Translations under genes and position numbers: made by a program | Shown: positions 122 to 64,000 of the stretch, piece by piece | How positions within the stretch are numbered: position 1 is the first letter of the stretch | Layout of the letters: each line of letters begins with the position of its first letter | Source of the DNA: Psammoneis japonica | Taxonomy: Eukaryota | Reading direction: 5' to 3' | Length of the DNA stretch: 64,000 nucleotides | Assembly: GCA_008632985.1 (NCBI GenBank) | Contig: QPGO01000027.1 | Span: 124,001-188,000 of the forward strand | Notes under the pieces: model-generated | What the model was told of the DNA's origin: nothing | Seen by the model: the letters and a program-made list of their open reading frames with translations, nothing else | Database searches by the model: none

Positions 122-412
122 GATTGTGTATAGTGATATGGTGGGAGAAACGCTATGTACCAGCGTCGCTGGAAGGGATGTGTGTCGTTGACGACGACGG
201 TTGCTGTCAGAGATCCTTCGCCGCCGCCGGCATGGTGTGTTGTGGTGTTGGGTGTTGCTGATTTTTAGGGTTTCTGGCGCGCTTATCATACTTTCAAGTA
301 CAAATAAAATTTATGTTTGATGTCATCACCAATTAACGATTCAGATAATTCAGTCGTGATCCGAGATCAAGCAAGTCGTGCCAATGACCTGAGCTAAAAT
401 CACCTCTCCACT

Positions 413-770
413 CACACAAACATCATGGTTGACATCATGACCCCTGACCCAACAATGCCCTCACTGTTTGCAAGTCCAAGTAATGCTGTCAACAACAACG
501 TGACAATTGTGAACATGCATCAAGCTTGGCAGCAACAGCCCTTTGTAAAGCATCAGGACACTCGCCACACAAACACCATGGTTGACATCATGACCCCTGA
601 CCCAACAATGCCCTCACTGTTTGCAAGTCCAAGCAATGCTGTCAACAACAACGTGACAATTGTGAACATGCATCAAGCTTGGCAGCAACAGCCCTTTGTG
701 AAGCATCAGGACACAAGAACAAGGCAGCAACAGCCCTTTGTGAAGAGCATCGGGGACACAAGAACAAACA
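413..770 (+). repeat. 153-bp tandem duplication plus a short partial third copy
   Basis: ATGGTTGACATCATGACCCC starts at 425 and 578; GGCAGCAACAGCCCTTTGTGAAG recurs near 723. Confidence 0.95.
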
Positions 771-1143
771 AGTTGAGCCGCCTTCTCCAGGAGCAAGTTG
801 GTTTCAGACAAAACAGAGTTTTTTTAAATGTCTCTGAGAGAGCTGAGACTCATGTTTTTTTGTCATCAGCACATTTTGTTGGGTGGTGGATGTGTGCATT
901 GGGACTGCTTTCACCCCCCACCAAGAGAAAAAAGCAAGAAACTTTTTGGCAACAACCCACAAGGTTTTCTGTGCATTTCCACGTGCCACACACTTTTGCA
1001 CGAAATTTGTGCAAGACAACTGAGCTCCAGAACACTGACATTTTTTTAATGCAAGCTCACACTTTTTGCTGGGCCACTGAGGAAAGCACAATGGTTAAAA
1101 TTTTGTTTCTTGGCACACAAACAAACAAATCTTTTTCACTTGT

Positions 1144-3396
1144 TTTAAGCCACCTGTGTGGCTCATTCTGTCTGCATTTTAAACACTTGTTGAGAACAGC
1201 TTCATTTGTTTTTTTCCTTGCATTTGTCAGATCTTAAGTTGCCTGTGTGGCTCACACAAGTGTTTTCTCTGTGTGCTGCAGTTTGCCACTTGCAGAGCAA
1301 AAATCAGTGAAATCGATTCCGTGATGTGCTTGACAAGTGCAAGACCCAGACAAACAACCCAGGTGAGTGTGAACAAGTTGATTGTTGCCACAGTTGCTTT
1401 TAAAAATGATGTGAATGTCACTCAATGCATTGTTCATGCAACATGGCACCACACAGGCGCAGTCTTGTTTTGGTTTCTTGGAAGAAGGGTGGGCTCCAGT
1501 TTTGGGTGGTTGAGATCTGCACTTGTGAGCAAAAAAGAAAAAAGCATGAACAATGTGCACCCTCGGTGTGACACACTCATCTCATTGATGATGTGAATGA
1601 TGCTCACAGATTTTGAACAGACAACTGTGTGTCTGGAATGTCTTTTCGGAAGCCAGATTTGGGTGCCACCTTTTGGAAAGCAACGGATGAAGCACGATCA
1701 AGTTTGCAAAAGTCACAAGTGACTTCAGTCATTTTCATGGGTGTCTCAGACTTCTGTTGTGTGCAAGTGACACTCACAGGGCACAGTGCAACAGTGAGGG
1801 GGTTGTTGCAAGTGTTTTCTTCACCATCCTGCTGTTTGACATGATGACTGCACTCATTCTGGCTGGTGCAAGGGACTCTTGGGGCATTGTTTGTCTTTCT
1901 TGGTTGATTTGTCCCATTTCAACAACTGTGTTGTTCAACAACAATGACAGGTGAACCAGACTGGGCATTTCAGTGGAGAAATGAACATTGTGCATGTGTT
2001 TTCTTGGCATGCTAGAGTTTGCCAGTTGAAACTGTCATGGCATGTTGCATCTCCTTGAGGTCATTGCGTGCAGCTCCCAGTCATGCAATCAGCTGTCAAC
2101 AGCACTGGTCTACACCACTTTGTCAAATTGCCCATCAAAAAATCTGTTCTCACAATTGCAGCAATGATTTCCAGCACTTGGAGCCTTGCAGAGAACTGCC
2201 TGCACACACCAAGTTCCAGTTCAATCCTGCTGTTGGGCTTGAATGTCACCAATTGCGTTTGTTGACTCTTGCCCTTGCTTGGTCACATTCAATGTCCTTC
2301 TGCACAGCAGATGATTCCTGGCACCTGCGCTGTTGCAAAGCCTTCAATCTGCAATGTTGACAAACTGCACATTGTTCTGCACAAGCAACATGATGAAAAT
2401 GGTTGTCCAACAGAAGTGCTCCAGCCAGCTGTTGTCAATTGCCTGTCACTGGCAGTGTTTTCTGCAGTTTGGTCCCAATCTTAGAAGCATTGTCCACTTG
2501 AAAATGCCTCTTCCCAGATGATGTGAACAGTTTGAGCTGTGCTCTGAATCAATTTGGTTGGAGCTGGCACACTCACATGATCCGAGGTCCAACTGCTTGC
2601 GGCTCCTCAGGAACTTGCACAATTTTTTGACACCTGACAACTGCACAGGATCATCTCATGCAGCCAGTGTTGGAGGGTGTCATTTGAGCCATTGATTGAA
2701 ACTTTTGGATGGTTTGGTGCAGACATTCAGTTGATTTGATTGTTGCAAATGATTGTGACAAGCAAGGATTGCCACGCTTGCTTTTGTTTTTGACACAGAA
2801 AACAAAACCAAAGAAAGACCTTGTGCCCTTCTTCATCATCTTTGTCAGATGTGCCATCCAAGTCATGGGTGTCTGCAGAAGGCATTCCACTCTTCTGGGC
2901 TGCCTTCAAAACATTTGCTGCAGCGTCTGATGCAGAAGAAACAAAGATGTTGAGTGAAAAGTTCAGAAGATGATTAAAGGCATTGAATGAAGATGCCTTT
3001 CTTTGGGGCACCCACCTTGTGATCATGATGATGTTTCTTCAATGTGCTCTCCAGGTGTTTTTTGCACTTGGTGTCAAATGTTGCCACCGCTGCAACTGAT
3101 CCCATGGTCGGCTTGAGTTGTGTTGCGTGTCTGTGTTTTGGAAAGAAAAAGAATTGATTTTGTGGGTTGTCAGCGTTTTTGGCAAAAATCACAGTGTGAC
3201 AGTCATGCAGGTGTGGCTCAAAAGCATTGTGACTCATTTTGAACTCTTGTTAAGAACAGCTTCATTTTATTTCCTCCAGATGTCAGATCTCTGCCTTTGT
3301 TTTAGTTGCCTGTGTGGCTCATTTTGTCCTCATTTTAAACCTCTCAAGAACAGCTTTGTTTGTTTCCTTTTCCTTCCATTTTGTCAGCTCTCTGCC
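1144..3396 (+). repeat. Dispersed ~100-bp degenerate repeat (copies at about 1144-1256, 3212-3305, 3305-3396)
   Basis: Shared CCTGTGTGGCTCATT...CATTTTAAAC...AGAACAGCTT...TGTCAG motifs. Confidence 0.75.
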
Positions 3397-4319
3397 TTTG
3401 CTTTGCTCTGTCTCTGCTGCACCTGTCCTTTTTTCCTGCTGGACACTGCACAACTCATCCTCCAATCTAACATCCACCAACAACGATGGTGTGCCCCTGT
3501 CACAATCCACTTTGTTGTCCTGGTTGGATGTGTGACAATGACAACAACAACAACAACAAGTGTGCTCTCTAAAGGCATTTTCAAAGGCATCTCCAGTGTT
3601 CTTCTTTCTCCATTTTGGCCTGAACCCTGATGATGACTTTGGGAAGCACACCCCCAGTGCTGCAGGAAGAGAAGCACTGGGAAGAGAGCAGGGAGAGCAG
3701 CTTAGATTTAAACTTGCCAAGGGATGGTCTTTGCATCACATGAGGCAAGCAATGGCACTGATGCTTGGAAAGCCACTGCCATGTGACAGAGACTGGGAAG
3801 ATTCTTTCATCTTCTTCCCTGGCTGTCACCATCACCGCAAAGGAAGACAATGGCCAGAGTTCATCAGCACGCATCCTCAGTGTTCCAAGGGGTTCATTCT
3901 GGCATTGAGTTTGATGACATGTCTTGGTGTCTTCTCCAATTGGAGCAACAGGCTTGCCTGGTGGAAGGTGCATGATGCACAGAGCAATGCCGCTTGAGAA
4001 GCTAAAATGGAGCATGTGGTGGTGTCCCCATGTCCCAGCAAACATTTGCCAAATGCCAAGCCAGATCATCATCATCACCACAAATGCACGTTGGCTTGAC
4101 TTGCTGCCTGCACAACATGCAACCCAAATGCACTCAGTCTGCATTTGTTGAGTGGGATGGCCCAATTGAGGAGGTGTCTTTTCACTCTTGATTTGGGAAG
4201 CTGCAAGCCTTGTCTTGGGCAGCAGCAGTCCCTTGTGTGATTCCTTCACAAACAAGAAGATCCCCAGCTGCACAAGGTGTGGAAATGTGAGGCCCACAGA
4301 TGTGGCAAAGGAGGTGTGC

Positions 4320-5411
4320 AGTTGTCTTAGGATGGCATTGGAGGACTCCAGTGGGTTGCCAGGGACATGCCAACAACCATGGTTGGGGAGCAAATGCCTT
4401 GGCTTGTGTCAATGCAGCACCTTGTCTCTCTGACATGACTGGCTTTGGCCCAGCCAGCCAACCTGCAGAGACAATGGAAATGTCTGTGCAAGGCAACAGT
4501 GCAAGTGCTCCATTGTCTTGGGAAAACATTGGATGACTCCATTGGGTCCTGGAGGATGCAATGACAACAATGGCTGGGAAGCAAAGGCCTGCAGAGACAA
4601 AAAAAACCATCTGTGCAACAGCGCAAGTGCTCAGTTGTCTTGGGATGGCTTTTGCATTGGATGACTCCATTGGGTCCCAGAGGATGAAATGACAACAATG
4701 GTTGGAAAGCAAAGGCCTTGTCTTGTGTCAATGCAGCCCTTTGTCTCTCTGACATGACTGGGTTTGGCCCTGCCACCCCACCTGCAGAGACAAGAAAACC
4801 ATCTGTGCAACAGTGCAAGTGCTCAGTTTTGTCTTGGGATGGCTTTGGTGACTCCATTGGATCCCAGAAAAGCCAACAACAACAATGGCTGGGAAGCAAA
4901 GGCCTTGGCTTGTGTCAATGCAGCCCTTTGTCTCTCAGACATGACTGGGTTTGGGTCCTGCCACCCCAGCTGCAGAGACAAGAAAACCATCTGTGTGCTC
5001 AGTTGTCTTGGGATGGCTTTTGGTGACTCCATTGGATCACAGAGGACACAACAACAACAATGGCTGGGAAGCACAGGCCTTGTCTTGTGTCAGTGCAGCA
5101 CCTTGTCTCTCTGACAGGACTGGGTTTGGCCCAGCTAAAAGAGCCAATTTGCAAGATGGACAAGGGAACCACCTGTGCAACAGTGCAAGTGCTCAGTTGT
5201 CTTGGGATGGCTTTTGGTGACTCCATTGGATCCCAGAGGAGCCAACAACAACAATGGCTGGGAAGAAAAGGCTTCATCTTGTGTCAATGCTGACCTTGTC
5301 TCTCTGACATCATGACTGCTGGGTTTGGCCCAGCCAAGAACCAATTTGCAAGAAAGACAAGGGAGCCATCTGTGTGACAACACAAGCACTCAGTTGTCTT
5401 GAGATGGGCAC
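4320..5411. repeat. Degenerate tandem array of ~130-195 bp units, left part (interrupted by the LTR element)
   Basis: About six recurrences of GACTCCATTGG..CAACAATGGCTGGGAAG..TGTCTCTCTGACATGACTGG..CAGTTGTCTTGGGATGG. Confidence 0.9.
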
Positions 5412-5687
5412 TGACAGGATTTGAACAGGATTTGGATGCGCGCGAAGTATCGCGCGCTGTTTAGTTTACCGCACACAGTTTTGTGTGCTTTAGTTCCGCG
5501 CGTTTGCGCGCGATGTAGTTTGCTTTCGAGCCACAAGGCTCACAAGAATAATAACAGTAGCCCGATTATACCGACCCACACGTCTTTCGGCTCCTGTAAC
5601 GGTCTCTGAGCGGAGACTCATCTGCTATTTAGACAGCAGTAAGGAGTTATTGTTTGAATTCTTGCCATTTGCCTTCAATTTCTGTCA
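5412..5687 (+). repeat. 5' LTR (276 bp)
   Basis: 270/276 identical to 12243-12518; TG...CA ends. Confidence 0.98.
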
Positions 5688-5704
5688 GATTAACAGTCTT
5701 GCTC
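5688..5704 (+). promoter_or_regulatory. Candidate primer-binding site complementary to the anticodon arm of tRNA-Asn(GUU)
   Basis: GATTAACAGTCTTGCTC directly follows the LTR; reverse complement contains GACTGTTAATC; no TGG-type 3'-CCA PBS. Confidence 0.55.
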
Positions 5705-6626
5705 ATTGTCAACCCATTGAGCAACCGCCATCGTCGTCGTTGATTTACCAACGACGCTATTTCAATTCTACGTGGACCTCCGTATATATTCTACATACAT
5801 CGGCAAGTCTACGCGCATCCAATACCAGGGCATCGGCAGGAAGTTAACGTCACCGTCAAGTCTCCTTACCGCTGGATATCTGGATTGATTATACTACCTT
5901 TGATCGCTGAAGACATACATTCAACGGTCATATCCAAGTCTATCCTTGATCCTCATCCCTTGATATACCTATTCATCGGTTAACGGTCAAGAATCCTACA
6001 TATTCAAGGATCTTCGTCGCTGAAGACATATATATATATACATATCTTCACGGCCAAGAACCTGTACACACTCTTCGGACTGCGGTTTTGCCACCACTCT
6101 ACAAGCACACCGAGTCCATTGTACCTGATCTACCCCGGACTACTGGTGCTCTACAGTTCTACTAGGTCCACGAGGACGACTGTGAGAGCAAGCAGCCGTG
6201 ATCACAGCCTGCGTTGGGGCGAGGGTGCTTTCCCGCGTTTGTTCGTTCGTCCACAGCGCCTGACGCCTGCGTCAACTGGCCAGCCTGATCGGGAAATCCA
6301 ACCGACATAAAATAAGAACGGTTCGGGGGTCTTGTCCACCTCCAGTCAGCTCACCTGCAGGGGCTTGCAACCCGCTACTCCGCTCGCAAGCAACCCAAAG
6401 CGCCACTGGCTGCGGGTTCGGACGTGCCGGCACAACTCTACGGACAGGATGGGAAGTTTAGCACTTGACAACGAACGGGATGGCAAAGCCCGGCGACTTC
6501 TGATTTTAAGATAGTTCAAGATTTCAAGTCAAGTCTGTTTCAAGTCAAGTCTGTTCTCACCCGAGTTTCAAGTCTGCCCTCGCTTCCCAATCAGAATTGA
6601 TTGTCCTGACACCACTTTTGTCTGCC

Positions 6627-7975
6627 ATGGTTCTCACTCGTCAGCAACAAATCGATGGTTTCGAGCACGTTGTTGGAACCGTGCTTGCCCAAGGTGCTGG
6701 GAGTCCTCTTCGTTTGGCTTTGGCCCAAGACGGCACGGACTCGTGTCAGGAACTGTTCACGTTCACACCGTCCCAAATCGACTCGCTTGTGTGCGACAAC
6801 GGCACCAATGTGATCCCTTTGCCTCGTGGTTATAAGAACATGTTAGCAGCACTGGTTGGTCTGCACATTGTCAAAGCACACAAAGGTCTTGACGTTGCCA
6901 ACGACTCCTCTTTGTTCACGCATGATGAGTTCCTTGCCTGCCGCCTCAGCCCGGACTGCATGTCCTCTGTGTCCATCGGCAGCTCACCCCTTGCACCTCC
7001 ACATGTCACCAACCCGACCAAGGCACGCGACCCGGTGCGAGACTTCAAGCGAGGCATCAAGCGTGATCCCACCGCTTTCACGGCTCTCAAATCCGGCAAG
7101 CAGTGGCACACTTGGCACACCTCACTTGTGGCACAAGCCCATGCCCAAGACGTCGAGTGCATTCTAGACTCGTCGTACAAACCGACCAGCCCCGAAGACA
7201 AACTGCTCTTTGCTGAACAGCAAAAGTGCATGTTCGCCGTCTTCGAACGCATCCTTCTCACCGACAAGGGCAAGGCTCTCATTCGCGAAAATGTGGGGTC
7301 CTCTGACGCACAGACCGTCTGCCGCTCCTTGTCTGAACACGCGCTTGCCTCCACCCGTGCATCCATCGAGTCCTCCACCCTGCTCACGTGCCTCACCACC
7401 GCACGTCTTGGTGATGGCACTTGGAAAGGTCCGACCCACGGGTTCATCCTTCATTGGCAAGATCAGTTGCGCAAGTGCGAGGCACTCATCCCCGCCAGCG
7501 ACCACTTCTCTGAAGGACAGAAGCGCGTCATGCTCGAGAATGCCGTGCACCCTGTCGAGGAACTCCGTGCTGTCAAGAACCAAGCTGATCAGCATCGTGC
7601 GCAGAGTGGCAAGAGCCTCACATGCGATCAACACTGTGGCTTGCTCCTCTCCGCGGCAGCTCAGTGCGACAGCACGTTTCAACCCAAGACGACACCTCGA
7701 GCTCCCCGACGCGCCATGTGCGCCCACGACGTCCACTCCGAGGAACCGTCCGACGATGTGTTCTACGACATTGACAGTGACGTTGACGTCCTTCAAGCCA
7801 ATGCTGCCTGCACCCGTGGTCCCAGCCTCACCGGTGTCCAATGGAGACGTCTCCCTCCCAACCACCAACGGCTCTGGGATTCGTTGCCCGATTCCTCCAA
7901 GGCGATCATCCTTGAGCACTCTCGCCCGCCTCCCCCAACCCGCGAGCCAGCAACTGCCATGAGTCTGTTACGGCC
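6627..7975 (+). CDS. gag: Copia Gag-like region (real frame probably switches to the pol frame near 7916-7975)
   Basis: ORF 6597-8318, ATG at 6627; FKRGIKRD and VMLENAV motifs typical of diatom copia Gag as I recall them; many Cys at likely Tyr positions. Confidence 0.85.
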
Positions 7976-10900
7976 AACCTTCACGACCAACACCTTGGGA
8001 GTGACGGTGATGTCAACTTGTCCAACACGACTCCTGCTGACTGTGGTGACTCCGCCACACATGTGGACGCCACTTCGGACAATCCCATCCTGGCGCACCT
8101 CACCAAGCGCAAGCCACTGCCACCCGGTGATCTGCAACGTCTGTTGTCTCCTAACCAAGCCCCCAATGCCAGTCGACCGGGGCCATCCGCTGCTTCCTCT
8201 ACCCCGCCAGCTTCTGCAGATAACACAGAACTTAACGGCCGCACTTGCCGCCGCGTTAACAACCACAATGTCATTTGCTCTGCCTCTGCTCATCGCTCCA
8301 CACGCACTGGCGCTCTAGTCGATCGTGGGGCCAACGGCGGCATTTCTGGCGACGACGTTCGCGTCATCGCACGCACCTCTCGCCAAGTCGACGTTCAGGG
8401 CATTGACGATCATCAATTGGTGGACATCCCCATTGTCGCCGCTGGTGCCGTCATTGAGACCCAGCGTGGTCCCGTCATCGCCATCCTCCATCAGCACGCA
8501 CACACGGGAAAGGGCAAGACCATCCATTCCTGCAGCCAGCTCGAATGGCACAAACAGGATGTCAACGATCGCTCTGTCAAGGTGCCCAATGGCTTGCAAC
8601 GCATTGCCACTCCTGATGGCTATGTCATCCCCATTGACATCAAGGCTGGCCTGCCTCATGTTGCCATGCGCCCTTGCACTGACGCCGAATGGGACACCCT
8701 GCCCCATGTCATCCTCACCGGTGATGACACATGGGACCCTTCCGTCCTCGATCACTCTGTCACTGACGACGACCAGTGGTGCGACGCGATCTCTGACCCA
8801 CAGGACGATCCCACTGCCAACCCATTTGACGAATGCGGCAACTGCCGTCACCGTGTCGTTGTCAACGAGACCATCTTGTCCGCTTCCTTGTCTGACGATC
8901 ACGCGTCCGCCCTCGATGATCACCTCATTCCGAACGACGACGTGTTCTACGAGTGTCATCTGCATGCGAGTGACCCCACGGGCGTTGACGTTCCACCTCC
9001 GGAGCGCACTGTGAAGCCCAAGGACCCCCCCTTCGAGTCTCTTCGGCCTTGCTTTGGCTTCCTGCCTGCCGATGCGGTCCGTCGTACTTTTGACTGCACC
9101 ACGCAGTGCGCCCGCATGCCCGCCGGCACACACCTTCGCAAGGCCTGCAAATCACCCAACCCCGCCCTTAATGTGCACCGCCGCAATGAGCCTGTCGCCA
9201 CTGACACCATTTGTGCCGACACCCCAGCCGTCGACTCTGGTTGCACCAGCGCCCAACTGTTTGTTGGCACCGAGTCTACCGTCACTGACGTCTGCGGCAC
9301 TAAGACGGACAAAGAGTTTGTCAACACACTCGAGGATCAGATCCATGAACGTGGTGCACCATCCAAACTCATTAGCGACCGTGCTCAAGTTGAGATCAGC
9401 AACAAGGTGCTCGGGATCCTGCGCGCCCTCTTCATCTCCAGCTGGCAAAGTGAGCCTCACCAGCAACACCAAAACTTTGCCGAACGTCGACACCAGACCG
9501 TGAAGCGCATGGCGAACACTGTCATGGACCGTTTTGGTTCGCCCGCCCACACATGGCTCCTGGCGCTCATGTGCGTGTGCTTCACACTCAACCACACAGC
9601 GTCCCCACGTCTCCACTGGCGCACGCCCCTCGAGACTCTCACTGGATCCACCCCGGACATCAGCCCATTGCTTCGCTTTCACTGGTGGGAACCAGTGTGC
9701 TTCCACCTCGATGACTCCGATTGGCCGTCCGAATCCCGTGAGTTGCGTGGACGCTTTGTTGGCATTGCTGAGCACGTCGGTCACCAGATGACCTTCAAGA
9801 TCCTCTCTGACGAGACTCAAAAGATCCTCTGCCGGTCCAACGTTCGCTCCGCTGCCCCCGATCCTGCCGTTCGAAACCTGCGTCTTGATCCTCCTGATGG
9901 GGAGCCACCTGAACCCATCATCAAATCTCGCCATGACGACAACCCCGTCGATTCTACTGATGGGGAGATCAGGACACCCAAGATGCCAGTTTTCGATCCG
10001 CAAGACATCATTGGACGTACCTTCCTCATGCAGCCACAAGAGGATGGACAACGCCACAGAGCTCGCATCGTCAAGGCCGTCGAAGACCACGAATGGAAAG
10101 TGAACGGCAATCCCGAGCTCACTAAGTTCGTCTGCTCTGTCAACAATGACGAATACGAGGAAGTCCTTGCTTGCAATGACATCATGAATCACATTGAGCA
10201 AGAAGACGAAGACACTGCCATTTGGAAATTTCGACGCATCGCATCACACGAAGGACCTCTGAAGCCTCACGACCCAACCTGGAAAGGCTCAAGCTGCAAC
10301 ATCATGCTTGAATGGGAAAGTGGGGAGATCACGTCCGAGCCTCTTGCCATCATCGCCAAGGACGACCCCGTCACCTGTGCCATCTATGCACGAGAGAACG
10401 GACTCCTCGACACGGATGGCTGGAAGCGGTTCCGCACTATCGCGAGGCGCCAAAAGAAGCTATTTCACATGGCCAACCAAGCCAAGCTTCGCTCCTTCCG
10501 CACTGCACCTCGCTACAAGTACGGATACGAAGTTCCCCGGAACTACAAACACGCCATGTCACTGGACGAACGCAACGGCAACCGCAAGTGGGGAGACGCA
10601 ACTAATCTCGAGATGGACCAACTCGACGAATACGAAGTCTTCCATGACTGCGGGCCCTTCAAGTCTTCCACTCCTCCTGCGGGACACAAGAAGATCCGAG
10701 TGCACCTGGTGTTCGACGTGAAACACGACGGTCGCCACAAGGCACGACTCGTAGCCGACGGGCACCTCACGGATGTACCTGTTGACAGTGTTTGCTCCGG
10801 AGCAGTCTCCCTCCGTGGCCTTCGGCTGATGATTTTCCTGGCCGAACTCAACGAGCTGGAGACATGGGCCACCGACATTGGCAATGCCTGCCTTGAAGCC

Positions 10901-12295
10901 ACCACCAAGGAGAAGCTTTACATTGTAGCTGGACCCGAATTTGGCAAACTCGAGGGACACATCCTTGTCATCCACAAGGCACTGTATGGACTTCGCAGCT
11001 CCGGTCTCCGCTGGCACGAGCGCTTCGCCGACTGCCTGCGAGCTGAAGGCTTCTTCCCCTGCCGCACCGAACCCGACATTTGGATGCGCAGGAACGGCGA
11101 CCACTATGAATGCACTGGCGTTTATGTGGATGACCTCGCCATTGCCATGAAGGACCCTCAATCTTTCATCGATACTCTCACGGAAAAGTGCAAGTTCAAG
11201 CTCAAGGGTACGGGACCCATTGAGTTCCATCTGGGTTGCGACTTTTCCCGGGACCCCGACGGAACCTTGTGCCTGTCTCCGCGCAAGTGCATCGAGCGCA
11301 TGGTCGACAGCTACGCCCGATTGTTTGGGGAGAAACCTGCCACCAACGCCCTGTCACCTCTAGAGAAGGGTGACCACCCCGAACTGGACACTTCCGAACT
11401 ACTGGGACCCGATGGCATTCACAAGTTCCAGTCTCTTGTTGGTTCACTCCAATGGGCAGTGTCCCTTGGTCGAATTGACATTGCCACGGCTGTCATGTCA
11501 CTCTCTAGCTTCCGAGCTGCGCCCCGTCAAGGCCACTTGGATCGTGCCAAACGCGTCTGTGGGTGCCTCTCCAAGATGCGACATGGTGCTCTCCGCGTTC
11601 GTACGGAAGAGCCCGACCATTCGGATCTCCCTGCTCCGGCCTATGAATGGATGCATTCCGTGTATGGTGAAGCAGAAGAGATGATCCCGAAGGACGCTCC
11701 ACCGCCCCTTGGCAAGTTCGTCACTACCACCCACTGCGTCGATGCAAACTTGCACCATTGCATGCTCACCGGACGCTCTGTCATGGGAATGCTCCACTTC
11801 CTCAACAAATTCCCGGCTGATTGGTTCTCCAAGAAACAAGCCACCGTGGAGACTGCAACCTACGGATCTGAATTTGTTGCCGCAAGGAATTGTGTCGAGC
11901 AGATTGTCGACCTGCGCATCACCCTGCGCTACCTTGGCGTCCCGATCCGTGATGTTAGTCACATGTTCGGTGACAACAAGTCGGTTGTAGACAGTGCCAC
12001 CATCCCGCACTCCAAGTTACACAAGCGACACACCGCACTGTCGTTCCACCGTGTGCGTGAGGCAATTGCCTCTGGTTACCTTGAGTTCCACTTCATCGAG
12101 GGCTCCCGCAATCCTGCTGACATTCTCAGCAAGCATTGGGGTTGCTCCCAAATCTGGGACCTTCTCCGCCCTCTCATGTTCTGGAACTTCATCCCATCCG
12201 AAGTCGAATCTGTTTCTGTGGCTCCTCAAGCAAACTGGGGAGTGACAGGATTTGAACAGGATTTGGATGCGCGCGAAGTATCGCGCGCTGTTTAG
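7916..12295 (+). CDS. pol: Copia Pol: protease, integrase, reverse transcriptase, RNase H (probably inactivated)
   Basis: LVDRGANGG (protease), ISDRAQVE and SEPHQQHQNFAERR (integrase), HKARLVADG, KALYGL, YVDD (RT), GDNKSV and NPADILSK (RNase H). Confidence 0.95.
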   Translation, partial: ALSPASPNPRASNCHESVTANLHDQHLGSDGDVNLSNTTPADCGDSATHVDATSDNPILAHLTKRKPLPPGDLQRLLSPNQAPNASRPGPSAASSTPPASADNTELNGRTCRRVNNHNVICSASAHRSTRTGALVDRGANGGISGDDVRVIARTSRQVDVQGIDDHQLVDIPIVAAGAVIETQRGPVIAILHQHAHTGKGKTIHSCSQLEWHKQDVNDRSVKVPNGLQRIATPDGYVIPIDIKAGLPHVAMRPCTDAEWDTLPHVILTGDDTWDPSVLDHSVTDDDQWCDAISDPQDDPTANPFDECGNCRHRVVVNETILSASLSDDHASALDDHLIPNDDVFYECHLHASDPTGVDVPPPERTVKPKDPPFESLRPCFGFLPADAVRRTFDCTTQCARMPAGTHLRKACKSPNPALNVHRRNEPVATDTICADTPAVDSGCTSAQLFVGTESTVTDVCGTKTDKEFVNTLEDQIHERGAPSKLISDRAQVEISNKVLGILRALFISSWQSEPHQQHQNFAERRHQTVKRMANTVMDRFGSPAHTWLLALMCVCFTLNHTASPRLHWRTPLETLTGSTPDISPLLRFHWWEPVCFHLDDSDWPSESRELRGRFVGIAEHVGHQMTFKILSDETQKILCRSNVRSAAPDPAVRNLRLDPPDGEPPEPIIKSRHDDNPVDSTDGEIRTPKMPVFDPQDIIGRTFLMQPQEDGQRHRARIVKAVEDHEWKVNGNPELTKFVCSVNNDEYEEVLACNDIMNHIEQEDEDTAIWKFRRIASHEGPLKPHDPTWKGSSCNIMLEWESGEITSEPLAIIAKDDPVTCAIYARENGLLDTDGWKRFRTIARRQKKLFHMANQAKLRSFRTAPRYKYGYEVPRNYKHAMSLDERNGNRKWGDATNLEMDQLDEYEVFHDCGPFKSSTPPAGHKKIRVHLVFDVKHDGRHKARLVADGHLTDVPVDSVCSGAVSLRGLRLMIFLAELNELETWATDIGNACLEATTKEKLYIVAGPEFGKLEGHILVIHKALYGLRSSGLRWHERFADCLRAEGFFPCRTEPDIWMRRNGDHYECTGVYVDDLAIAMKDPQSFIDTLTEKCKFKLKGTGPIEFHLGCDFSRDPDGTLCLSPRKCIERMVDSYARLFGEKPATNALSPLEKGDHPELDTSELLGPDGIHKFQSLVGSLQWAVSLGRIDIATAVMSLSSFRAAPRQGHLDRAKRVCGCLSKMRHGALRVRTEEPDHSDLPAPAYEWMHSVYGEAEEMIPKDAPPPLGKFVTTTHCVDANLHHCMLTGRSVMGMLHFLNKFPADWFSKKQATVETATYGSEFVAARNCVEQIVDLRITLRYLGVPIRDVSHMFGDNKSVVDSATIPHSKLHKRHTALSFHRVREAIASGYLEFHFIEGSRNPADILSKHWGCSQIWDLLRPLMFWNFIPSEVESVSVAPQANWGVTGFEQDLDAREVSRAV
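12232..12242 (+). promoter_or_regulatory. Short polypurine tract upstream of the 3' LTR
   Basis: AAACTGGGGAG abuts the TG of the 3' LTR. Confidence 0.6.
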
Positions 12296-12518
12296 TTTGC
12301 CGCACACAGTTTTGTGTGCTTTAGTTCCGCGCGTTTGCGCGCGATGTAGTTTGCTTTCGAGCCACAAGGCTCACAAGAATAACAACAGCAGCCCGATTAT
12401 ACCGACCCACACGTCTTTCGGCTCCTGCAACGGTCTCTGAGCGGAGACTCATCTGCCATTTAGACAGCAGTAAGGAGTCATTGTTTGAATTCTTGCCATT
12501 TGCCTTCAATTTCTGTCA
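12243..12518 (+). repeat. 3' LTR (276 bp)
   Basis: Matches the 5' LTR except six TA versus TG/CA sites. Confidence 0.98.
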
Positions 12519-12770
12519 GGCACAAGAGACTTCATTGGGTCCCTGAGGAGGCAAGAACAACAATGGCTGGGAAGGAAAAGCCTGGTCTTGGGCCAACACA
12601 GCTCCTTTTCTTCTGTCTGATGTGATTGGCTTGCTTTGGCCCAGCCACCTCACCTGCAGAGACAAGGGAGCTTTCTGTGCCATGTGACAGTGCAAGTGCC
12701 CAGTTGTCTTTGGATGGCCTTTTGGGTGCCTTCATTGTGTCTCAGGGGAGCCAACAACAACCAGGGCAAA
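12519..12770. repeat. Continuation of the degenerate tandem array after the LTR insertion
   Basis: GACTTCATTGGGTCCC..CAACAATGGCTGGGAAG..CACCTGCAGAGACAAG..CAGTTGTCTTTGGATGG resumes the unit broken at 5411. Confidence 0.88.
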
Positions 12771-14629
12771 TTCACAGTGTTCCCTGTCTCTTGTTTGGAT
12801 GGAAAACCAAGAGAGAGAGCAAAAGAGCAAGACCCACCTTCAAGTTGCCCACTTTCTTTACAAGGTTGGTCTCCAAAGTTGTCATTTCACTGGCATGAAG
12901 GGTCTGTTTCTGAGCTTTTTGGAGAGAGGCAATTGTCTTGTTGGCAGTGGCAGCAATTTTTGAATGCACCAAATGGCAAATGGGTGTTGATTGAGGTCCT
13001 GGAGCTGGGAGTGTGCAGCACGAGTGTGAAAATTTCAATCTTGACAAGAACATGTGAACAAAATCAAACTTTTTGAATGCATGTGTGACATTGGTGACTG
13101 AATGATTCATTTCACATTGAGGCAGTTTCAAATCATTCAAACCATTGTGTTGCAACAAAATCATTGATTTTTAAAACAAAGTCATTGCTGGAAAAGAGAT
13201 GCCAACAGGAATCAACTGATGGTCAGGCTTGCATTTTGGCCAAAAACAAGAATTGTTGCTCTCTCACAAGACACAAAAAATGCAAACTCAAGTCACACCC
13301 GACATCGGACAATGAGAGCAGTGGGGACAGGCAGCGGCATTGCGGATGGGACAGAATGACATGCAGAACACAAGGTGAGAAAAATGAGTGGCAAATGCAT
13401 GGAGATTGGGAGCACAATGCAAACAACTGACACTTGTGCACATCTTTGCACACAGACATCTAGACACGCAACCTGAGCTGCAATGGAAGATGGGCAACAG
13501 GGAAGGGCACAAAGGTGAGCAAAAGCAGCACATGAGATGAGATTGTAAGAAAAACACCAAGACATGCACAAAACCTTGTCATTGGCACAAAGTTTTCTCT
13601 TGTTGCAGGCAATGCTTTGAACTGCCAAACAGAAGGAGTGCAAGACAGATTGTTGCAGAATGAGATGTTGTTGCCTGGTGCAGATGATCACACAGAGAGC
13701 AAGAGTGGTTGCAAGGGAGGACACCAGTGCAGAAACAACAAAACAGAACATTTGCAAATGAGATGACAAGCAGCACACAGCAGATGCACAATCAGGCCAA
13801 CAAGACAATTGAACATCATTGTTGTCAGAAATGAACAATGTCAGAAAGTTGTTGTGAACACACGGTTGTTTTAAGAAAGAAACAAATGCAAGCAACAAGT
13901 TTCCTGCTTGGAAGGTCAGTTTAATTGTGGACAGATGTGAAAATGATGTCAAAACAAAGAGACATGAAAGATTGACAAGAATGTGTGTGTGATGCGACTG
14001 ACTTACATTGACCATTAAATCCTGCTTGGAAGGTTCAAACAATGGTCAAACTCCCTTTGTCAATGACTGTCAAGGACTTGTTGTGAACACATGATTCTGA
14101 ACAAGAGAATGTGAGCTCTGAACAAGAGCCACAACATTTTCCAGACGTTGTTCAAAACAGGCAGACCCAACAAAGAAACAGCAATGTGGTCTCTCAGATG
14201 CACCTGAAGAACAATGACATGCATTGTGTGCCATCATTTCTTGAAATGTGTTGCCTCCTGAACATTTTTGTTCATCAGATTCACTCACACAAAATGCACT
14301 GTGAAAGAAGAAGGACTGACACAATTGCCAACACCTGATTGGCACATTTCTCACCTGGGATGAAAGGACACATCTGTGTCATGAGCAATGGGCAATGGTT
14401 GCCCAGCAGGAGGTGTCATGCCACTTGCATCATGCAGAGGAGATTGTCATCCTCACCTGCACTCTCATCAAGGATGGTGTCACCAAGTTGGTGCAAGGCT
14501 GGCGCCAGCAATGTCAAGGCAGCAGGTGCAATGTGGAAAAATGATGCGCGGCTCTTTTTGCCACAGCATGATGCTTGTTGATTCTCTTTCCTTGCCCAGC
14601 AACCTGCTTTTGTTGTGCATGCTGCCAAC

Positions 14630-16920: not shown

Positions 16921-17161
16921 CAGATGGTGCTTGGGGTTTGCCAGCGCCTCAAAAGTTTTTCCCTGGCAAACCAGAGGGCAAGTTGAGTTTAGATGGATCA
17001 ACCAGAGAGCAAAACCCACCAAGGCTTCGGCATCTTGTTTCTCTGCATTCTGCAAATGGGCAGTTGCAGCTCTTGTGGTGGTTGCGTGATGCCAGCAGAT
17101 GACTGCAGATTGGGGACAGTTGCCATCCCTGAGGCCAGGAGCTGTGGTCAACAAGAACAAT

Positions 17162-21440: not shown

Positions 21441-21582
21441 GACGCAGACGTCGACGCTAAACTGAATACAGACCGCGCATGGTATAACAAGCATAGAGAA
21501 AGGTTTACGTAATCATAGAAGTATGCATTCAGAATTGCACTATAAAATTGGTTTGTGTATTCTCTTCCCCCACGTCCAAAAC

Positions 21583-31552: not shown

Positions 31553-31558
31553 CTCTCT

Positions 31559-31597
<39 letters not shown>

Positions 31598-31623
31598 TTT
31601 CTCTCTCTCTCTCTCTCTCTCTC
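31553..31623. repeat. (CT)n microsatellite (others at 31313-31342 and 39879-39909)
   Basis: Directly visible. Confidence 0.95.
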
Positions 31624-39877: not shown

Positions 39878-39912
<35 letters not shown>

Positions 39913-59174: not shown

Positions 59175-61474
59175 CTAAACTTCCCCACGTAGCACACCAG
59201 ATTCATCGTCGTAATCATTACGGCGGGAGAAGCTGACACGTCTGTTGTCTTGAACAGATCTTTGCCATCTCTCAACGTTGGTGAGCGGGGCACGCCTGTC
59301 ATTTCTACTACTCGTCTCGGGACGATGCTTTGGCTTGCGGCTGCTTTCCACCAAGTTGTCAACATCAACAGGAATTGCACTCTTGATGCTCCCGTCCACC
59401 AGACTGTCAGTATCCACTGGACCCGAGACACGACGACGATCATTTCTAGAACGGTTGTTACTCTTTTCGAAGTTTTGTGACTCCAGGTCGTACGGGACAG
59501 GATAGCCACCACGTGGGTTGCTATTGCTTCGTTGGCCCTTCCTTGCACTACCCCCGTCTGTAGGGTTCGAGACCACACATAAATCCTTCCCGACAAGGGA
59601 AGATAAAGAAGGTTTTTTGTTCATCGTAGAAGGAAGTCTACGCTGTGACGGGCTTGCTGCAGAGAGAAAATCGCCTCCAGTGGTAGTGCTGCAGGTAGTC
59701 ATTGCCTCGACAAACTGCGGGTCTTCGCTGAGCCATACGGGCTCTCTGACGCCAGCACCTTCACCACTGTTGTCAGAAGCAGTCGACATATCGTCGTCAT
59801 CCAGATCGTCGACATCGACAACATCGTGCCCCTCTTCCAGATAGGCAGCATTCCAAGAATCAACGACAGTATCTTCAATCTCTGGAATCGTTTTCGGTCT
59901 CTGGTAGTTTGGTAAATAGATAAACATCGCTCGGAGCAAGGCGAAGAATCTTGTAAGGAGCACAATAAGTGCGTAGATTGGATAGGTGACAATGCACAAA
60001 AAAGACAATCGAAGATCCTTGCGACGCCAATAAGCCACAGTGTTCCACAAGAAGAGGACCAACATAGCCATAGCCAAGTAAAGACCAAAGCCAATGTAAA
60101 ATTCAAGAATACCAGCCGACAGGATAATCACGGGGAGCCTCAACCAGTCTGCAAAGATCGAGTAAATTGTGTAGAACTGTGTCAACTTCATTGTCAAGGT
60201 GCCCCATATGGAGCTGTGTGCTGTGAAGAAAAACACCTTGACATATTGCCAAAAGTAGGCGTGGAGTGCCATGTCCCAACTTCTGACCCTCTGCGTCCAA
60301 AAGTTTGGCATCTCACCAAGTATCGTGTGAGGAGTTTCGGTATAAATCACCACCTCTGGCTTCATCTTCAGGTCGTAGCCATTTCTCATTGCCCAGAATC
60401 CGAGCTTAGCATCCTCGGCGTAAAACACTGTGTCGTGGTCGCGAAGCGCCTTTTTCAATGCTCCTCGTTCCCACATGGACGCCGCTCCGTGAGGGTACTG
60501 CACCGTTCCAGACTTGTGCTGCATCAGCTTGTTGTAGCCCGTCAGTTGATACTCGAGTGATTGCCACTCGACAAAGAGGGAATAGCGGCGTTCAGGATGG
60601 CACGCTCGGATCGGGTATACCACGCCGACCGTGTTTCCCTCAATGAGATCAATCCCCATATCCAACTCCTCTGGTAGAATCACATCATCGTCCAGCACGA
60701 GAATGTACTTGTATTTCTTACACGCCATGACGCCCGCATACTGTAAAGGAAGAAAAACGAAAGCGCGAAGGCATTCGGTGAGCAGGAATCTTGGAAAACG
60801 GGTCAGTCACGGATCAGTGCCGCGAGCAGTTTTCCCACCAATCTCAGAGACGCATGCCGACAGTTCCAAATCAAGATGTTGCTTACCTGTGCTAGCGTCT
60901 TGTTCCCAAAGCCGTTCCAGATGTAGTTGGACTTGGGGCTACACTTGGCCAAGACCTCGCGACTGTCATCAGTGGGTTCTTTGCTGTTGCCGTTGTCGAC
61001 AATGTAAATCTGCTGTGGCTTGACGTGGTGCAGACAAGCCTCGACGGTGTTTGGGATAATGTCTCGAGAATTATGACAAGCAATCACGATAGCAAGGTCC
61101 TTGTTCTTTCTGCGACGCTGTCTTGCAAGGTCCACCTTGACCATCTTGCGCTTTCCGTGTACCAATTTGGGTCTTTGGTGAACTTGTTTGGGAGGAACTG
61201 GGTAGACGCCGTTTGTAAGGATCGAAAGGAAAACCATAAAGGGCTCCACGAGAAAGATCACGATACCAAGGGCGCCATAATCCGCCCTTAGGATGCGCAC
61301 CACATATCCCCACCAGTCAAAGTAAATTTGGGTCACCACGAGAGCAGCAGCAATCGCAGCATAAACGGAATAGTAGATGACCTTACGAGGCCCCCAGTTC
61401 TTACAAAATATTTCAGACGGGTCCAGAATACTCTGGATCGCCTTGCAGTTTATAGCAAACGCTTCACAAAGCAT
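59175..61474 (-). CDS. Processive GT2 glycosyltransferase (chitin/hyaluronan-synthase-like fold), intron about 60887-60742
   Basis: IACHNS, IVDNG, VLDDD, AED, QRVRSW, flanking TM helices. Confidence 0.88.
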
Positions 61475-61869
61475 GGTGAGTAAAAATTGTTGTGTATAAA
61501 GAAATTGTGGGAGGTGCTTCCAGCCGGGTTCTGTTGCAACTCAGGTGGGATTCAATGAAAGACTCGTGTACGTGTGGCCACGTATCGCGTTTTCGACTTT
61601 GACCTCAATTTTCTGTGACCTGTTGATTCGTGGATGTGATTTTGGGGTTCTCTCTCAATGATAGTAAGACATTCACACACAAAAATCCCAGTCGTGAGTT
61701 TAATTATATTTAAATCGATGAAAATCTTGCATTGGCATGAAGCCGCTTAGGCAAAATTTCAAAATTGTAGACTATCGTCAAAATAGAACAAAAATAGCGG
61801 GAAGATTGCTACTCCGAGCTGTTTCCTTGAAAACAACTCTTCGGTCATTTATAATATATGAAGCACGAG

Positions 61870-64000
61870 CCACAAGCACACACCAATGAAGTGAATTGCA
61901 TTGGAAGATTGTTTTCAGGATCCCCCCATCGTGCATGTGTGGATGGCCTGATCACTGTCTGATTTGGCGATGCTTCTCCAGTCCGATCCACCGGTTGAAA
62001 GGATCTCAACAAAGATTGCTGCAAAGAAGTCATCACCCCATTCATTAAAAAGGAGCTTGAAGTGGCCGTCTGACGCATGCTTTCATTGTCAAGAATAAAA
62101 TGTCAGTGAAGGCAGTGTGTCTTGCTTTTGATTTGGCAACATGTTCTCCAGCTCCAGCGACAAAAGATGGCGCCACAGACAAATGTGAAAGGCTTTCAAT
62201 TTCCAAGCAATTCTCTCTCCTCTTGAGCCATCAAGCTCCATTTTCTTTGTGCAGCCAGGTGGAAGATGCTGATGGTTGCACACCAGGCAGATGGCACCAA
62301 TTTTTTGGCCTTTCCAACACAGCCAACCAGAACCCTGTGGCTCCCAAAACCCAAAACGCCCCAGAAAGATGATTTGATTCTCTTGAACTTGATGCTGAAT
62401 GATGCCAACATTGTGTTCATGATCTGCTCTGTGCCCTCTTCCTTTGCAAGCTGTTCTCTGTTTGGTTTCTTGACAGAAGCTGTTGCTCATGATGAGTGTG
62501 GGATGATTGAGTGAAAAGCTCATGCAGCATTCTCACATTTGCAATTTACATTTTTAAGACTTGATGTGTTTGGCCTGTGGCTCTTTTGTTGCTTTGTCCA
62601 GAGCCAGTTTGGTCATGCCACAGACTTGTTTTGCCAACTCAAAGCCAGCTCATGCCAAGAGTTTGGTTGGCGAGACATTGCGCACCACATGGACAGCATC
62701 TTTGTGCTTTGTTGGGCTTTGGAACATTGTTGCATCACCTCTGCCTGTCATGACTTTTTTTCACAAAGCAACAGGAAGGAGACATGAGTCATGATGGGTT
62801 GAGAAGGTCATCCCAGAATGAACCTAAAATTCTGGGGCCAGCATGATTGGCAAATTCAGTGCAAAGTGATGAACCTTGATGGACAAATGCGCGAGCATCC
62901 ACATTGTGAATTTCTTGCAGATCATGACACATGTTGTGCTTTGCACTGATTTGGAAATCATTGTGACAAATGGGGCTCAAATCATTGGTGCAAACTTCTT
63001 GCACATTGTGACTTTTGGCAAGGGACGCTGCAAAGGGCCCCACTCCCACCATGCAACCCACCACAACAGTGCCAGTGGATTCTTCTTGCCTCATGATTTG
63101 ACCCACCCATTGAGCATGCTTGTGAACAAGACAAGAGCTCCAGCACACATTGCCAAAATCCAAATCAAAAACACACCCCTCCTTCTCACTTTGCAGTGCC
63201 AGACTCCAGTGGTGCCTTGAATGTCCTGCCAACACCTCCACTTCAAATGTCTGACACATTGTGCTCATGTGGTGTGCACCTTGTTTGCTGTTCTTTTGAC
63301 TTTGGTGCTCTTGTCCAACAAGCCATTGCCAATGTGCTCAAAACACAAGAGTTGTTGTCTGAAATTGATGTGAGCCACATGAGCCACCACCCCTTTAAAT
63401 GCCCACAGGATTTCGAACATGCTGGTCAGCAAGAGGCATTTCAACACCTGTCTGTTCTGCAAATGAACCCTTGTGCCTCAATGTCATTGCATGCATGGTT
63501 GGTTCTGCCTCCATGTCATCTTGCAAAAACTTTGCAATGACATCAATGTCCTTTGTGTTGGTCAATTGTTTGAGTGACAGCATGTGCTTGCTCTTGTCCT
63601 CATGAGCAAAGACATTTTTTGTCTCGTGGTGCAATGCAACAACTTGGATGAAAGGTTGCAACACAGCTTGGCTGTGCAACATGACAGAGAACAATTGATG
63701 CCTTCTTGTGACAATGTTGCTTCTCAAACTCTCCAAAGGAAATTCTGAGATGGGGTGGCAGCAGGAAGGATTGGCAGGAACTCAAACCTGGCAAGGAGTT
63801 GTGCTGCTGTTGTCAACACAACATGATGAATCCATTGTCTTCTGTGGTGCTGGCAGGAGACAAACATGAGATGAAAATGTCCTGAGAGTTGTTTGAGTGT
63901 TGAGCATTCAAAATTGAGTGCTGTGTGTGCATGCAAGTCTGCTCAGCACCAACTGTTTTGCTTTGGCTCCCACTCATGCAACATTTTTTTTTCATTTTGC
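61870..64000. other. TpA- and CpG-depleted domain running off the window
   Basis: Composition switch near 61870; nearly Tyr-free ORFs. Confidence 0.9.
62790..63470 (-). pseudogene. TRM5: tRNA (guanine37-N1)-methyltransferase TRM5 relic
   Basis: VAHVAHINF..LLDK..NKV, FEVEVLAG, EGCVFDLDFGNVCWSSCL, GVGPFA, VCTNDLSP (cf. VYWNSRL, VYANDLNP). Confidence 0.85.

Follow-up and report, generated by a model that had tools for sequence, protein, structure and literature searches.

Blocks of Psammoneis japonica DNA almost free of TpA: the probable footprint of a regional A:T to G:C mutator

We analysed 64,000 nucleotides of the Psammoneis japonica genome (GenBank assembly GCA_008632985.1, contig QPGO01000027.1, positions 124,001 to 188,000, forward strand), referred to here as the window and numbered from its first letter. 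Blocks from which the dinucleotide TpA (TA) has nearly vanished, with TpG (TG) and CpA (CA) in its place, are interleaved there with islands of ordinary genes, and a copia-type retrotransposon is itself depleted over much of its length. The features on which the analysis turns are listed below, where o/e denotes the ratio of observed to expected dinucleotide counts and LTR a long terminal repeat.

553-5437: TA- and CG-depleted block (22 TA and 30 CG in 4,885 bp; o/e TA 0.064, CG 0.113, TG 1.78, CA 1.88)
4319-5411, plus strand: left part of a 194-bp satellite array, forming the right part of the preceding block (found by TRF and self-BLAST)
5412-12518, plus strand: copia-type (RVT_2) LTR retrotransposon, recognised by its LTR pair, target-site duplication and RVT_2 match
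5412-5687 and 12243-12518, plus strand: the LTRs of this element, 276 bp each, with ends read directly
5407-5411 and 12519-12523: 5-bp target-site duplication GGCAC, flanking both LTRs
5448-6512, plus strand: spared stretch of the element, taking in the bulk of the 5' LTR together with the leader as far as the gag start (62 TA in 1,065 bp, o/e 0.93)
6515-10383, plus strand: near-saturated part, gag to mid-pol (24 TA in 3,869 bp; o/e TA 0.136, CG 0.93)
10385-12471, plus strand: half-mutated part, the end of reverse transcriptase/RNase H and most of the 3' LTR (TA o/e 0.39)
12478-20494: largest TA- and CG-depleted block (35 TA and 102 CG in 8,017 bp; o/e TA 0.064, CG 0.225)
28263-33153: TA-depleted block with mild CG loss (32 TA in 4,891 bp; o/e TA 0.099, CG 0.653)
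about 27850-31415, minus strand: damaged leucine-rich-repeat (LRR) receptor-like gene, with LRR Pfam matches in three different frames
39773-40723: short TA-depleted island with sharp edges between two genes (2 TA in 951 bp; o/e TA 0.040, CG 0.331)
61859-63998: TA- and CG-depleted block running off the end of the window (6 TA and 17 CG in 2,140 bp; o/e TA 0.038, CG 0.152)
62792-63337, minus strand: decayed TRM5/TYW2-like methyltransferase fragment (Pfam PF02475, 28.2 bits against a cut-off of 28)

Measured in 1-kb windows, TA o/e is 0.01-0.2 over approximately 0.5-5.4, 6.5-20.5, 28.3-33.2, 39.8-40.7 and 61.9-64 kb, versus 0.41-0.81 in the gene islands. A two-state segmentation on T followed by A delimits six depleted segments summing to 24.7 kb, which hold 121 TA where about 954 would be expected from the frequency in three large normal segments. 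From normal to depleted segments the TA share of all dinucleotides falls from 3.85% to 0.49%; TA and CG together lose 6.44% of dinucleotides, TG and CA together gain 6.14%, and the remaining twelve dinucleotides and the base composition shift little. The regional confinement can be seen directly at the block edges, which are sharp (TA is absent from 32528 to 33172 and then occurs once every 10-50 bases), and the six segments end at most about 200 bp from the adjoining genes. As an outside control, we took 80 loci of related retrotransposons from metagenomes: none of their 1,258 1-kb windows had a TA o/e below 0.25, compared with 93 of 253 in the stretch analysed here, 52 of them below 0.1. A first-pass annotation of the letters alone had described four blocks with almost no TA between normal islands, a picture that both the windows and the segmentation bear out, with two amendments. 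Its first block (0.4-20.4 kb) is not uniform, because it takes in the normal and the half-depleted parts of the retrotransposon, and its second begins at about 28.26 kb by segmentation, not at 27.6 kb, with TA thinning from about 27.7 kb.

The retrotransposon offers a record of how TA was lost. A self-BLAST pair of 284 bp (5405-5688 against 12236-12519) contains the two LTRs, and the polyprotein between them matches RVT_2 (PF07727 as listed) with an E-value of 3e-25, so that the domain, the LTR pair and the 5-bp duplication all place the element in Ty1/copia. Its polyprotein has 1,310 database homologues with a full length of about 1,880 amino acids, and departs from them by one frame shift near 7940, where a tblastn search with the homologue consensus matches two frames. 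The satellite resumes at 12519-12767, and with the element removed one monomer spans the junction; the retrotransposon therefore sits within a single monomer. Three sequencing runs (X1 to X3) come from one sample, which is possibly the source of the assembly, and for X1, a DNA run, we used contigs of exact 31-letter words. By their summed depth the element family is very abundant (about 75,000, versus 58 for single-copy sequence). Some family copies carry an extra base after 7931, near the frame shift (about 16% of X1 depth, and an X3 contig). The loss of TA within the element is patchy: the first 1.1 kb is intact, the next 3.9 kb is near saturation and the last 2 kb is half changed. The first boundary is abrupt, with TA at full density up to 6512 and nearly none immediately after it.

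The two LTRs of an element are identical at insertion. Here they differ at six positions, every one of them a TA in the 5' LTR that reads CA (five sites) or TG (one site) in the 3' LTR, so the change acted on DNA after the element had inserted, and both the direction of change and its timing are observed directly. Whereas the 5' LTR retains all 15 TA sites, the 3' LTR has lost 6 of the 15, compared with no difference at 20 CG sites (p = 0.003) and none at about 246 other positions (p = 1e-8). The self-BLAST pair has two more mismatches, at 5409 and 5411, which fall beyond the LTRs themselves, in the region of the duplicated target site. The first-pass annotation had held that repeat pairs differ mainly by TA versus TG or CA, and this applies to some pairs: it is true of all six LTR differences and of two of the three in a 153-bp tandem, but of none of the eight in a 92-bp tandem, where four of the eight make up two sites with TG opposite CA. 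A pair at 27.5 and 32.1 kb gives weak support, with 8 TA-type substitutions among 25, 2 of CG type and 15 of other kinds. When seven monomers of the satellite are compared, no double difference is more frequent than TG opposite CA (14 columns), a count not normalised for TG and CA being also the commonest dinucleotides and hence compatible with hypermutation.

Conserved tyrosines tell the same story over a longer span. We aligned the consensus of 60 full-length homologues with the element and scored columns that are at least 80% conserved. In 6515-10383, 17 of 18 such tyrosine columns are changed (12 to Cys, 2 to His, 2 to Phe and 1 to Trp), against 27 of 347 other conserved columns (p = 2e-16); in 10384-12471, the figures are 11 of 22 (7 Cys, 2 His, 2 Phe) against 23 of 346 (p = 3e-7). 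When columns with at least 50% tyrosine are considered, the 31 in 6515-10383 now read Cys (18), His (5), Tyr (3), Phe (3), Leu (1) and Trp (1), and the 29 in 10385-12471 read Tyr (14), Cys (9), His (3) and Phe (3). Each of the 35 changes from Tyr to Cys or His needs a single A>G or T>C. All 60 aligned homologues retain 3.3-4.5% tyrosine, so TAY (Y, pyrimidine) is the ancestral codon, now read as TGY or CAY. Together with the LTR pair, these columns uphold the earlier view that TA is the ancestral state; a family consensus with TG or CA in its place would have pointed the other way, and it is tyrosine that the consensus of the 60 keeps.

A second protein family behaves likewise, as the first-pass annotation had proposed in noting that conserved tyrosines now read Cys or His. 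In the cap domain of the damaged LRR gene, aligned with 148 homologues out of 1,551 matches, the two best-conserved tyrosine columns (127 and 135 of the 148) read His and a third reads Cys, and tyrosine makes up 0-0.5% of the frames in its block, versus 2.3-4.8% in eight of nine tabulated gene-island frames. The frame of the TRM5/TYW2-like fragment contains no tyrosine, 8.8% His and 4.9% Cys; its match to solved structures (E 0.14) is too weak for scoring individual tyrosine changes. A host gene probably gave rise to this fragment as a pseudogene copy.

These comparisons bear on the idea that TA was never abundant in the blocks, either because it is avoided under selection, for example by a nuclease or transposase that targets TA or TTAA, or because the sequences arrived TA-poor. 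Block edges do coincide with the edges of inserted elements, as such an origin would have it. Yet none of the 60 aligned proteins and none of the 80 metagenome loci, the best 80 of 532 confirmed matches, is TA-poor, with the reservation that one of the two search patterns contained tyrosine and mutated copies may escape it; TA o/e in the 80 loci is 0.44-1.02, so the loss is not a trait of the element family. The LTRs diverged at TA alone, TTAA is the one TA context that was kept, and where a polymerase and an LRR cap domain have Cys or His for a conserved tyrosine, this is decay, not adaptation. We regard selection or intrinsic composition as hardly credible. An A:T to G:C mutator directed at repeats or heterochromatin, the process inferred in the first-pass annotation, agrees with the evidence, in that the transitions are confined to sharply bounded repeat and non-genic blocks.

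Both strands are hit, as had been claimed, for Cys and His both replace tyrosine and TG and CA are about equally abundant in each depleted block. In the plus-strand element, however, Cys exceeds His by 27 to 8 (p = 0.002), while the minus-strand LRR gene shows His, His and Cys. This predominance of A to G on the sense strand could be the mark of extrachromosomal editing, in which an ADAR-like enzyme acts on retrotransposon RNA, or another on the cDNA during reverse transcription, before insertion. Other family copies share TG at some sites, and the spared 5' end of the element recalls the gradients that APOBEC3 editing leaves along retroviral cDNA. Part of the Cys excess is nonetheless explained by the T-A-C preference described below, because a tyrosine codon always presents T-A-pyrimidine on the sense strand. 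RNA editing would have produced identical LTRs, yet six TA sites differ, and a preference for a 3' pyrimidine is unlike that of ADARs, which prefer a 3' G. Moreover, the satellite, the LRR gene, the methyltransferase fragment and 8 kb of DNA at single-copy depth are depleted as much as the element or more, with TG about equal to CA. Since DNA that is no retroelement has been changed on both strands, editing of RNA or cDNA is not the whole story, and as an account of the blocks we consider it very unlikely.

A mutator of chromosomal DNA, by comparison, follows rules that can be read from the sites themselves. A tyrosine codon changed at both bases would read CGY, which occurs in none of the 60 tyrosine columns; either change thus protects the other base, meaning that an intact TpA is needed and that each site changes once. 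To examine neighbours, we sorted TA sites according to which base follows the adenine 3' on either strand and expressed their survival in the depleted blocks relative to the gene islands. Survival is 0.49, 0.09 and 0.016 with no, one and two pyrimidine 3' neighbours, respectively (chi-square p = 2e-32). TTAA survives at 0.92 (34 versus 53), only 5 sites with two pyrimidine neighbours are left versus 445, and ATAT is gone altogether (0 versus 116). When the 80 related loci, a fairer stand-in for the ancestor of the element, replace the gene islands, the order is the same and less steep (0.29, 0.11 and 0.07; p = 0.008). Codons of known ancestry show the neighbour effect as well, since 25 of 41 TAC codons became TGC and 2 of 11 TAT codons became TGT (p = 0.017). 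The T-A-pyrimidine rule is a preference, not a law. Splitting the gains of TGN into TA-derived and CG-derived parts was also tried and was dropped, being confounded by the differing make-up of genes and repeats.

The same counts speak to error-prone repair or bypass of the polymerase-eta type, or to biased mismatch repair or gene conversion in heterochromatin. Like these processes, the changes are targeted at A:T and regionally confined. Polymerase eta works on the WA motif (W, A or T; both TA and AA) and leaves a mixture of transitions and transversions. In the depleted segments, AA stands at 8.03% versus 8.24% in the normal ones, AT and TT are likewise undepleted, TTAA is spared yet ATAT eliminated, and the six LTR differences are all transitions at TA, with no transversions. 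GC-biased conversion would also be expected to raise GC content, and the older blocks, at 0.457-0.475, are no higher than the gene islands, at 0.468-0.490. We hold this group of explanations to be highly improbable; in particular, the polymerase-eta candidate named in the first-pass annotation fails on the unchanged AA and on a spectrum of transitions alone.

The first-pass annotation did not record that CG too is depleted in four of the six segments (o/e 0.11-0.33), with 0.65 in 28.3-33.2 kb and 0.93 in 6515-10383 of the copia element. In other words, the older blocks are poor in both TA and CG, and the young element is poor in TA alone. In the older blocks, the CG pattern is that of ordinary CpG to TpG/CpA decay, which on these dinucleotide ratios is the mark of long-standing cytosine methylation. 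With most of its TA gone at a CG o/e of 0.93, and with the LTR counts given above, the element indicates that TA decays much faster than CG. Decay of 5-methylcytosine cannot account for the TA loss, as had been argued before, and the CG content of the TA-poor element makes this plain. The converse combination is found among the metagenome relatives, many of which have a CG o/e of 0.16-0.5 with ordinary TA (0.16-0.25 in loci L009, L025, L053, L008, L035 and others); such loci are evidence that in other hosts this lineage of elements has undergone decay of the methylation type. Relatives that lost CpG and kept TA, and an element that lost TA and kept CpG, separate the two processes directly. The territory that the two losses share in the older blocks suggests, as far as composition can tell, that the mutator may be directed to methylated, silent chromatin.

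Whether the bases are real was addressed with the X1 contigs. The depleted 14.2-20.2 kb are covered by those at depths of 44-60, each of which departs from the window at 0-8 places, and the contig of the adjoining gene has a depth of 58; the block at 14.3-20.3 kb is thus at single-copy depth today, which says nothing of its past copy number. A base-calling artefact, raised at the outset as something that reads of amplified DNA might expose, finds no support here, because the contigs carry the same TA-poor sequence at single-copy depth. An error of sequencing, base calling or assembly, such as a modified base read as G, deserves some thought, given that the platform of assembly and runs is not on record and the supporting run is from a single sample. 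A strand-specific miscall would, however, give conflicting TG and CA reads and not one clean state, and the pattern follows biological units: one LTR against the other, conserved tyrosine codons and gene boundaries. The differences between contigs and window at CG versus TG/CA, six each way, have no direction either. We think an artefact most unlikely. None of the runs is recorded as RNA, but run X2 is RNA-like (it yields a spliced contig at 21.5-24.7 kb) and lacks cover over 6.3-20.3 kb, which we did not use as evidence of silence.

Between 13.9 and 19.7 kb the X1 contigs and the window show 28 listed differences, comprising 12 of CG versus TG/CA, 3 clean ones of TA versus TG/CA and 13 of other kinds. 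Counted by contig record, records 1-7 have 29 differences in about 5.3 kb (13996-19697), versus 2 in 4.7 kb of adjoining genes, an approximately tenfold excess. TA and CG both look still hypervariable in this segment, on small numbers and with the relation between run and assembly unclear.

What the depleted blocks contain is mostly without coding signal. None was recognised in 553-5437 (20 frames without a Pfam match above threshold) or in 12478-20494 (0 of 36 frames above threshold), and 28263-33153 holds 1.7 kb without assignment besides the LRR gene. The Pfam scans covered 201 stop-to-stop frames in total (31, 92 and 78 frames with minimum lengths of 200, 90 and 100 amino acids, respectively). 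The 92 frames of at least 90 residues all lie in the depleted blocks, where only the LRR gene and the TRM5/TYW2-like fragment gave a match; no viral genes were seen in these blocks. TA-poor DNA is nonetheless rich in long open frames on both strands (the 92 fall within 24.7 kb), because the stops TAA and TAG have been erased; with a family match for nearly none of them, gene finders would over-call such DNA. Two TA-depleted blocks also carry (CT)n microsatellites, at 31545-31624 and 39879-39909.

The islands consist of ordinary genes. An RTEL1/Rad3-type helicase gene (34095-37793, plus strand) has a PDZ domain inserted in the helicase core; its homologues in diatoms also have a RING-type domain, and the architecture is common to Triparma. 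The best named relatives of its frame are from Seminavis, Cyclotella, Thalassiosira, Amphora, Nitzschia and Cylindrotheca (45-50% identity), with the sister group Triparma next (39%), and these relatives mark the host as a diatom. A glycosyltransferase frame compared with the Protein Atlas matched bacterial look-alike clusters alone and carried no taxonomic information. A hybrid histidine-kinase/response-regulator gene with PAS domains (21543-24701, minus strand) has five introns of 71-83 nt (GT..AG), as read from the spliced X2 contig, and a DUF6823 frame (46815-47426, plus strand; E 1.5e-37) lies in a normal gene island. No deaminase gene is found among the 201 scanned frames of the 64-kb window, in keeping with the earlier remark that no responsible enzyme is evident there.

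Considering all of these observations, the blocks are probably the fixed footprint of a regional mutator of nuclear DNA that converts A:T to G:C at TpA, a process of the same kind as that reported from the chlorarachniophyte Bigelowiella natans (Mettrop et al., bioRxiv 10.64898/2026.01.13.699255). The mutator would require an intact TpA and turn it into TpG or CpA according to which strand's adenine is hit, leaving the site immune after one change. It would prefer T-A-pyrimidine, act more weakly on T-A-G and nearly spare T-A-A, with TTAA surviving, at a rate far above background mutation and above CpG decay. Its targets would be silent, mostly repeated or decayed DNA (here the satellite, the copia element, the LRR gene copy, the methyltransferase fragment and sequence that could not be assigned), and it may be recruited to such DNA through methylated, silenced chromatin. 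The process may have a defensive role.

As to the catalyst, pure transitions, tight rules at the -1 and +1 positions, the need for an intact dinucleotide and the involvement of both strands point to something deaminase-like. Tentatively, and at less than even chance, we propose a nuclear enzyme from the zinc-deaminase (TadA/ADAT-like) superfamily that would be recruited to silent chromatin and deaminate adenine in polynucleotides there, its product inosine being copied as G. The main rival, to which we give only a small chance, retains the TpA-specific process and places the damaged base on the other side of the pair, as a thymine in purine-T-A, oxidised or modified in another way (such as the 5-hydroxymethyl- or 5-formyl-uracil that a TET/JBP-type oxygenase produces), that mispairs with G and ends as C. 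Oxidised thymines do mispair with G, and since TpA is self-complementary, all of the observations fit a lesion on the T side of R-T-A (R, purine) equally well. The absence of transversions and the tight -1/+1 rule are, by contrast, typical of deaminases, and nothing found points to a thymine-modifying enzyme or to such a base in diatoms. Amphioxus ADAT2 expressed in E. coli prefers DNA adenine in GAA, unlike TA (PMC10354150), which speaks for the thymine side; the B. natans authors favour adenine deamination, without direct evidence (bioRxiv 10.64898/2026.01.13.699255).

Several points weigh against an adenine-directed mutator of chromosomal DNA, or against parts of it. The scanned frames of the window contain no deaminase; the sequence cannot tell an altered adenine from an altered paired thymine, given the self-complementarity of TpA; and the GAA preference of amphioxus ADAT2 is not the expected one. 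The first 1.1 kb of the copia element is unmutated, which the proposed process does not explain; later gene conversion of the 5' end or a chromatin boundary at the LTR promoter is possible. The neighbour rule relies on proxies for ancestral composition, and among the LTR events, whose ancestral state is known, only four of six are at T-A-pyrimidine and neither of the two sites with two pyrimidine neighbours is mutated. CpG loss is the sole observation behind the proposed involvement of methylation, chromatin state or small RNA. Confirmation of the bases comes from a run on one sample, possibly the assembly's own, with no platform on record. Lastly, the element keeps TA at 10521, 10527 and 11106, where 64%, 77% and 99% of the family depth has TG. 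Most family copies must therefore be mutated too, and TG at 11106 is so nearly uniform as to suggest that part of the mutated states were inherited from an already mutated copy that later multiplied. Even so, the LTR differences and the targets that do not move still require action on chromosomal DNA.

Targeted hypermutation as a genome defence is textbook knowledge for cytosine, in the form of fungal repeat-induced point mutation (RIP) and of the APOBEC/AID enzymes. Adenine hypermutation in chromosomal DNA has so far been the matter of one preprint on one alga, without a mechanism. The same signature is now present, nearly complete, in a second and distant lineage, an ecologically dominant group on another branch of the supergroup, which turns a single-organism curiosity into a possibly widespread defence. 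Any candidate enzyme is constrained to an intact TpA, one change per site, a preference for T-A-pyrimidine, sparing of TTAA and action on both strands, and further by edges at most about 200 bp from genes, a pace faster than CpG decay and co-location with it. If general, the process alters how transposon ages and mutation spectra are read in such genomes, explains false long reading frames in silent DNA, and can guide the search for natural DNA adenine deaminases of biotechnological interest. Bolder, and in our opinion doubtful, is the proposition that a TpA-specific DNA adenine deaminase at methylated, silenced chromatin is an old defence arm common to diatoms and chlorarachniophytes, distant lineages of the stramenopile-alveolate-Rhizaria (SAR) group. 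Among natural A-to-I mutators of eukaryotic chromosomes it would rank as the first, its T-A-pyrimidine rule would descend from that of a tRNA anticodon-loop deaminase, and transposons would be inactivated by it sooner than by the decay of methylated cytosine. The changes in the LRR receptor-like gene copy would then leave room for a further part of such an enzyme, in diversifying or pruning gene families.

Among known systems, fungal RIP shares with the process described here a hypermutation by transitions on both strands of repeats and transposons, with genes left alone, a dinucleotide skew and reading frames destroyed. RIP depends on duplication, occurs before meiosis and employs the RID and DIM-2 enzymes. 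As described, it changes C:G to T:A, mainly at CpA, and creates TpA, whereas here TpA is lost, CpA and TpG are gained and the other base pair is changed. The first-pass annotation was thus right that the process runs opposite to RIP: TA is the ancestral state, and RIP's C:G to T:A direction is not that of the TpA changes. Deamination of methyl-cytosine resembles it in the loss of CpG and gain of TpG/CpA within the same blocks (four of six), but cannot remove TA, is slower (by the LTR counts) and is absent from the copia element.

Clustered transitions are also made by ADAR and by APOBEC3/AID, which are deaminase-based systems of innate defence. Their substrates are double-stranded RNA or single-stranded cDNA, with one strand affected, unlike the changes on both strands and in DNA other than retroelements seen here, and the base altered by APOBEC/AID is C and not A. 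According to Mettrop et al., a 5' U is favoured by ADARs (bioRxiv 10.64898/2026.01.13.699255).

Closer in chemistry are TadA, ADAT2/ADAT3 and the base editors derived from TadA, all of which convert adenine to inosine. In the tRNA adenosine-34 deaminases the target adenine follows U33, and bacterial tRNA-Arg reads U-A-C at this place, which resembles the T-A-C preference. To our knowledge no natural chromosomal role has been established for TadA/ADAT enzymes. Amphioxus ADAT2 can deaminate DNA, and its preference on E. coli DNA for G-A-A and for hairpin loops, not for T-A, sets it apart (PMC10354150).

The nearest parallel is B. natans, in which de novo TpA to TpG/CpA hypermutation was measured (Mettrop et al., bioRxiv 10.64898/2026.01.13.699255, to which the statements in this paragraph refer). 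There, of 302 de novo mutations, 231 were located in two viral regions integrated into the genome; A>G or T>C made up 230 of the 231, and all GC-biased ones were on TpA. Per site and generation the rate came to about 6e-7, approximately 1000 times background, with hypermutation in only 11 of 15 lines. Genome-wide, 124 TpA-poor clusters were found, and such 1-kb clusters, rich in CpA and TpG, hold an excess of reverse transcriptase and transposase domains. As a candidate the authors proposed an ADAT2 homologue, adenine deamination itself not being shown; the first candidate named in our first-pass annotation, an adenine deaminase, matches this proposal. The present case is alike in consisting of A:T to G:C transitions alone (all six LTR differences and the 35 tyrosine changes), in its limitation to TpA with TpG and CpA as products, and in its confinement to regions of foreign or repeat origin with the rest left normal. 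It differs in its host, a diatom and not a rhizarian, and in being a fixed footprint where B. natans shows de novo mutations in culture lines. The depletion is far deeper, with a TA o/e of 0.04-0.14 versus a Rho of 0.45 in the giant-virus region, and in place of giant-virus and virophage DNA the targets are a satellite, a copia element, a member of a gene family and a pseudogene fragment.

Full-text searches of the literature returned natural TpA hypermutation in the B. natans preprint alone and no report in diatoms. The earlier statement that the process is undescribed therefore holds for diatoms, but not for the process itself, which this 2026 preprint has measured. The main text of the preprint is silent on CpG, trinucleotides, context, flanking bases, heterochromatin and diatoms, and its supplements (Table S2) may hold flanking bases. 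Relative to that main text, the neighbour rule and the co-located CpG decay described here are new.

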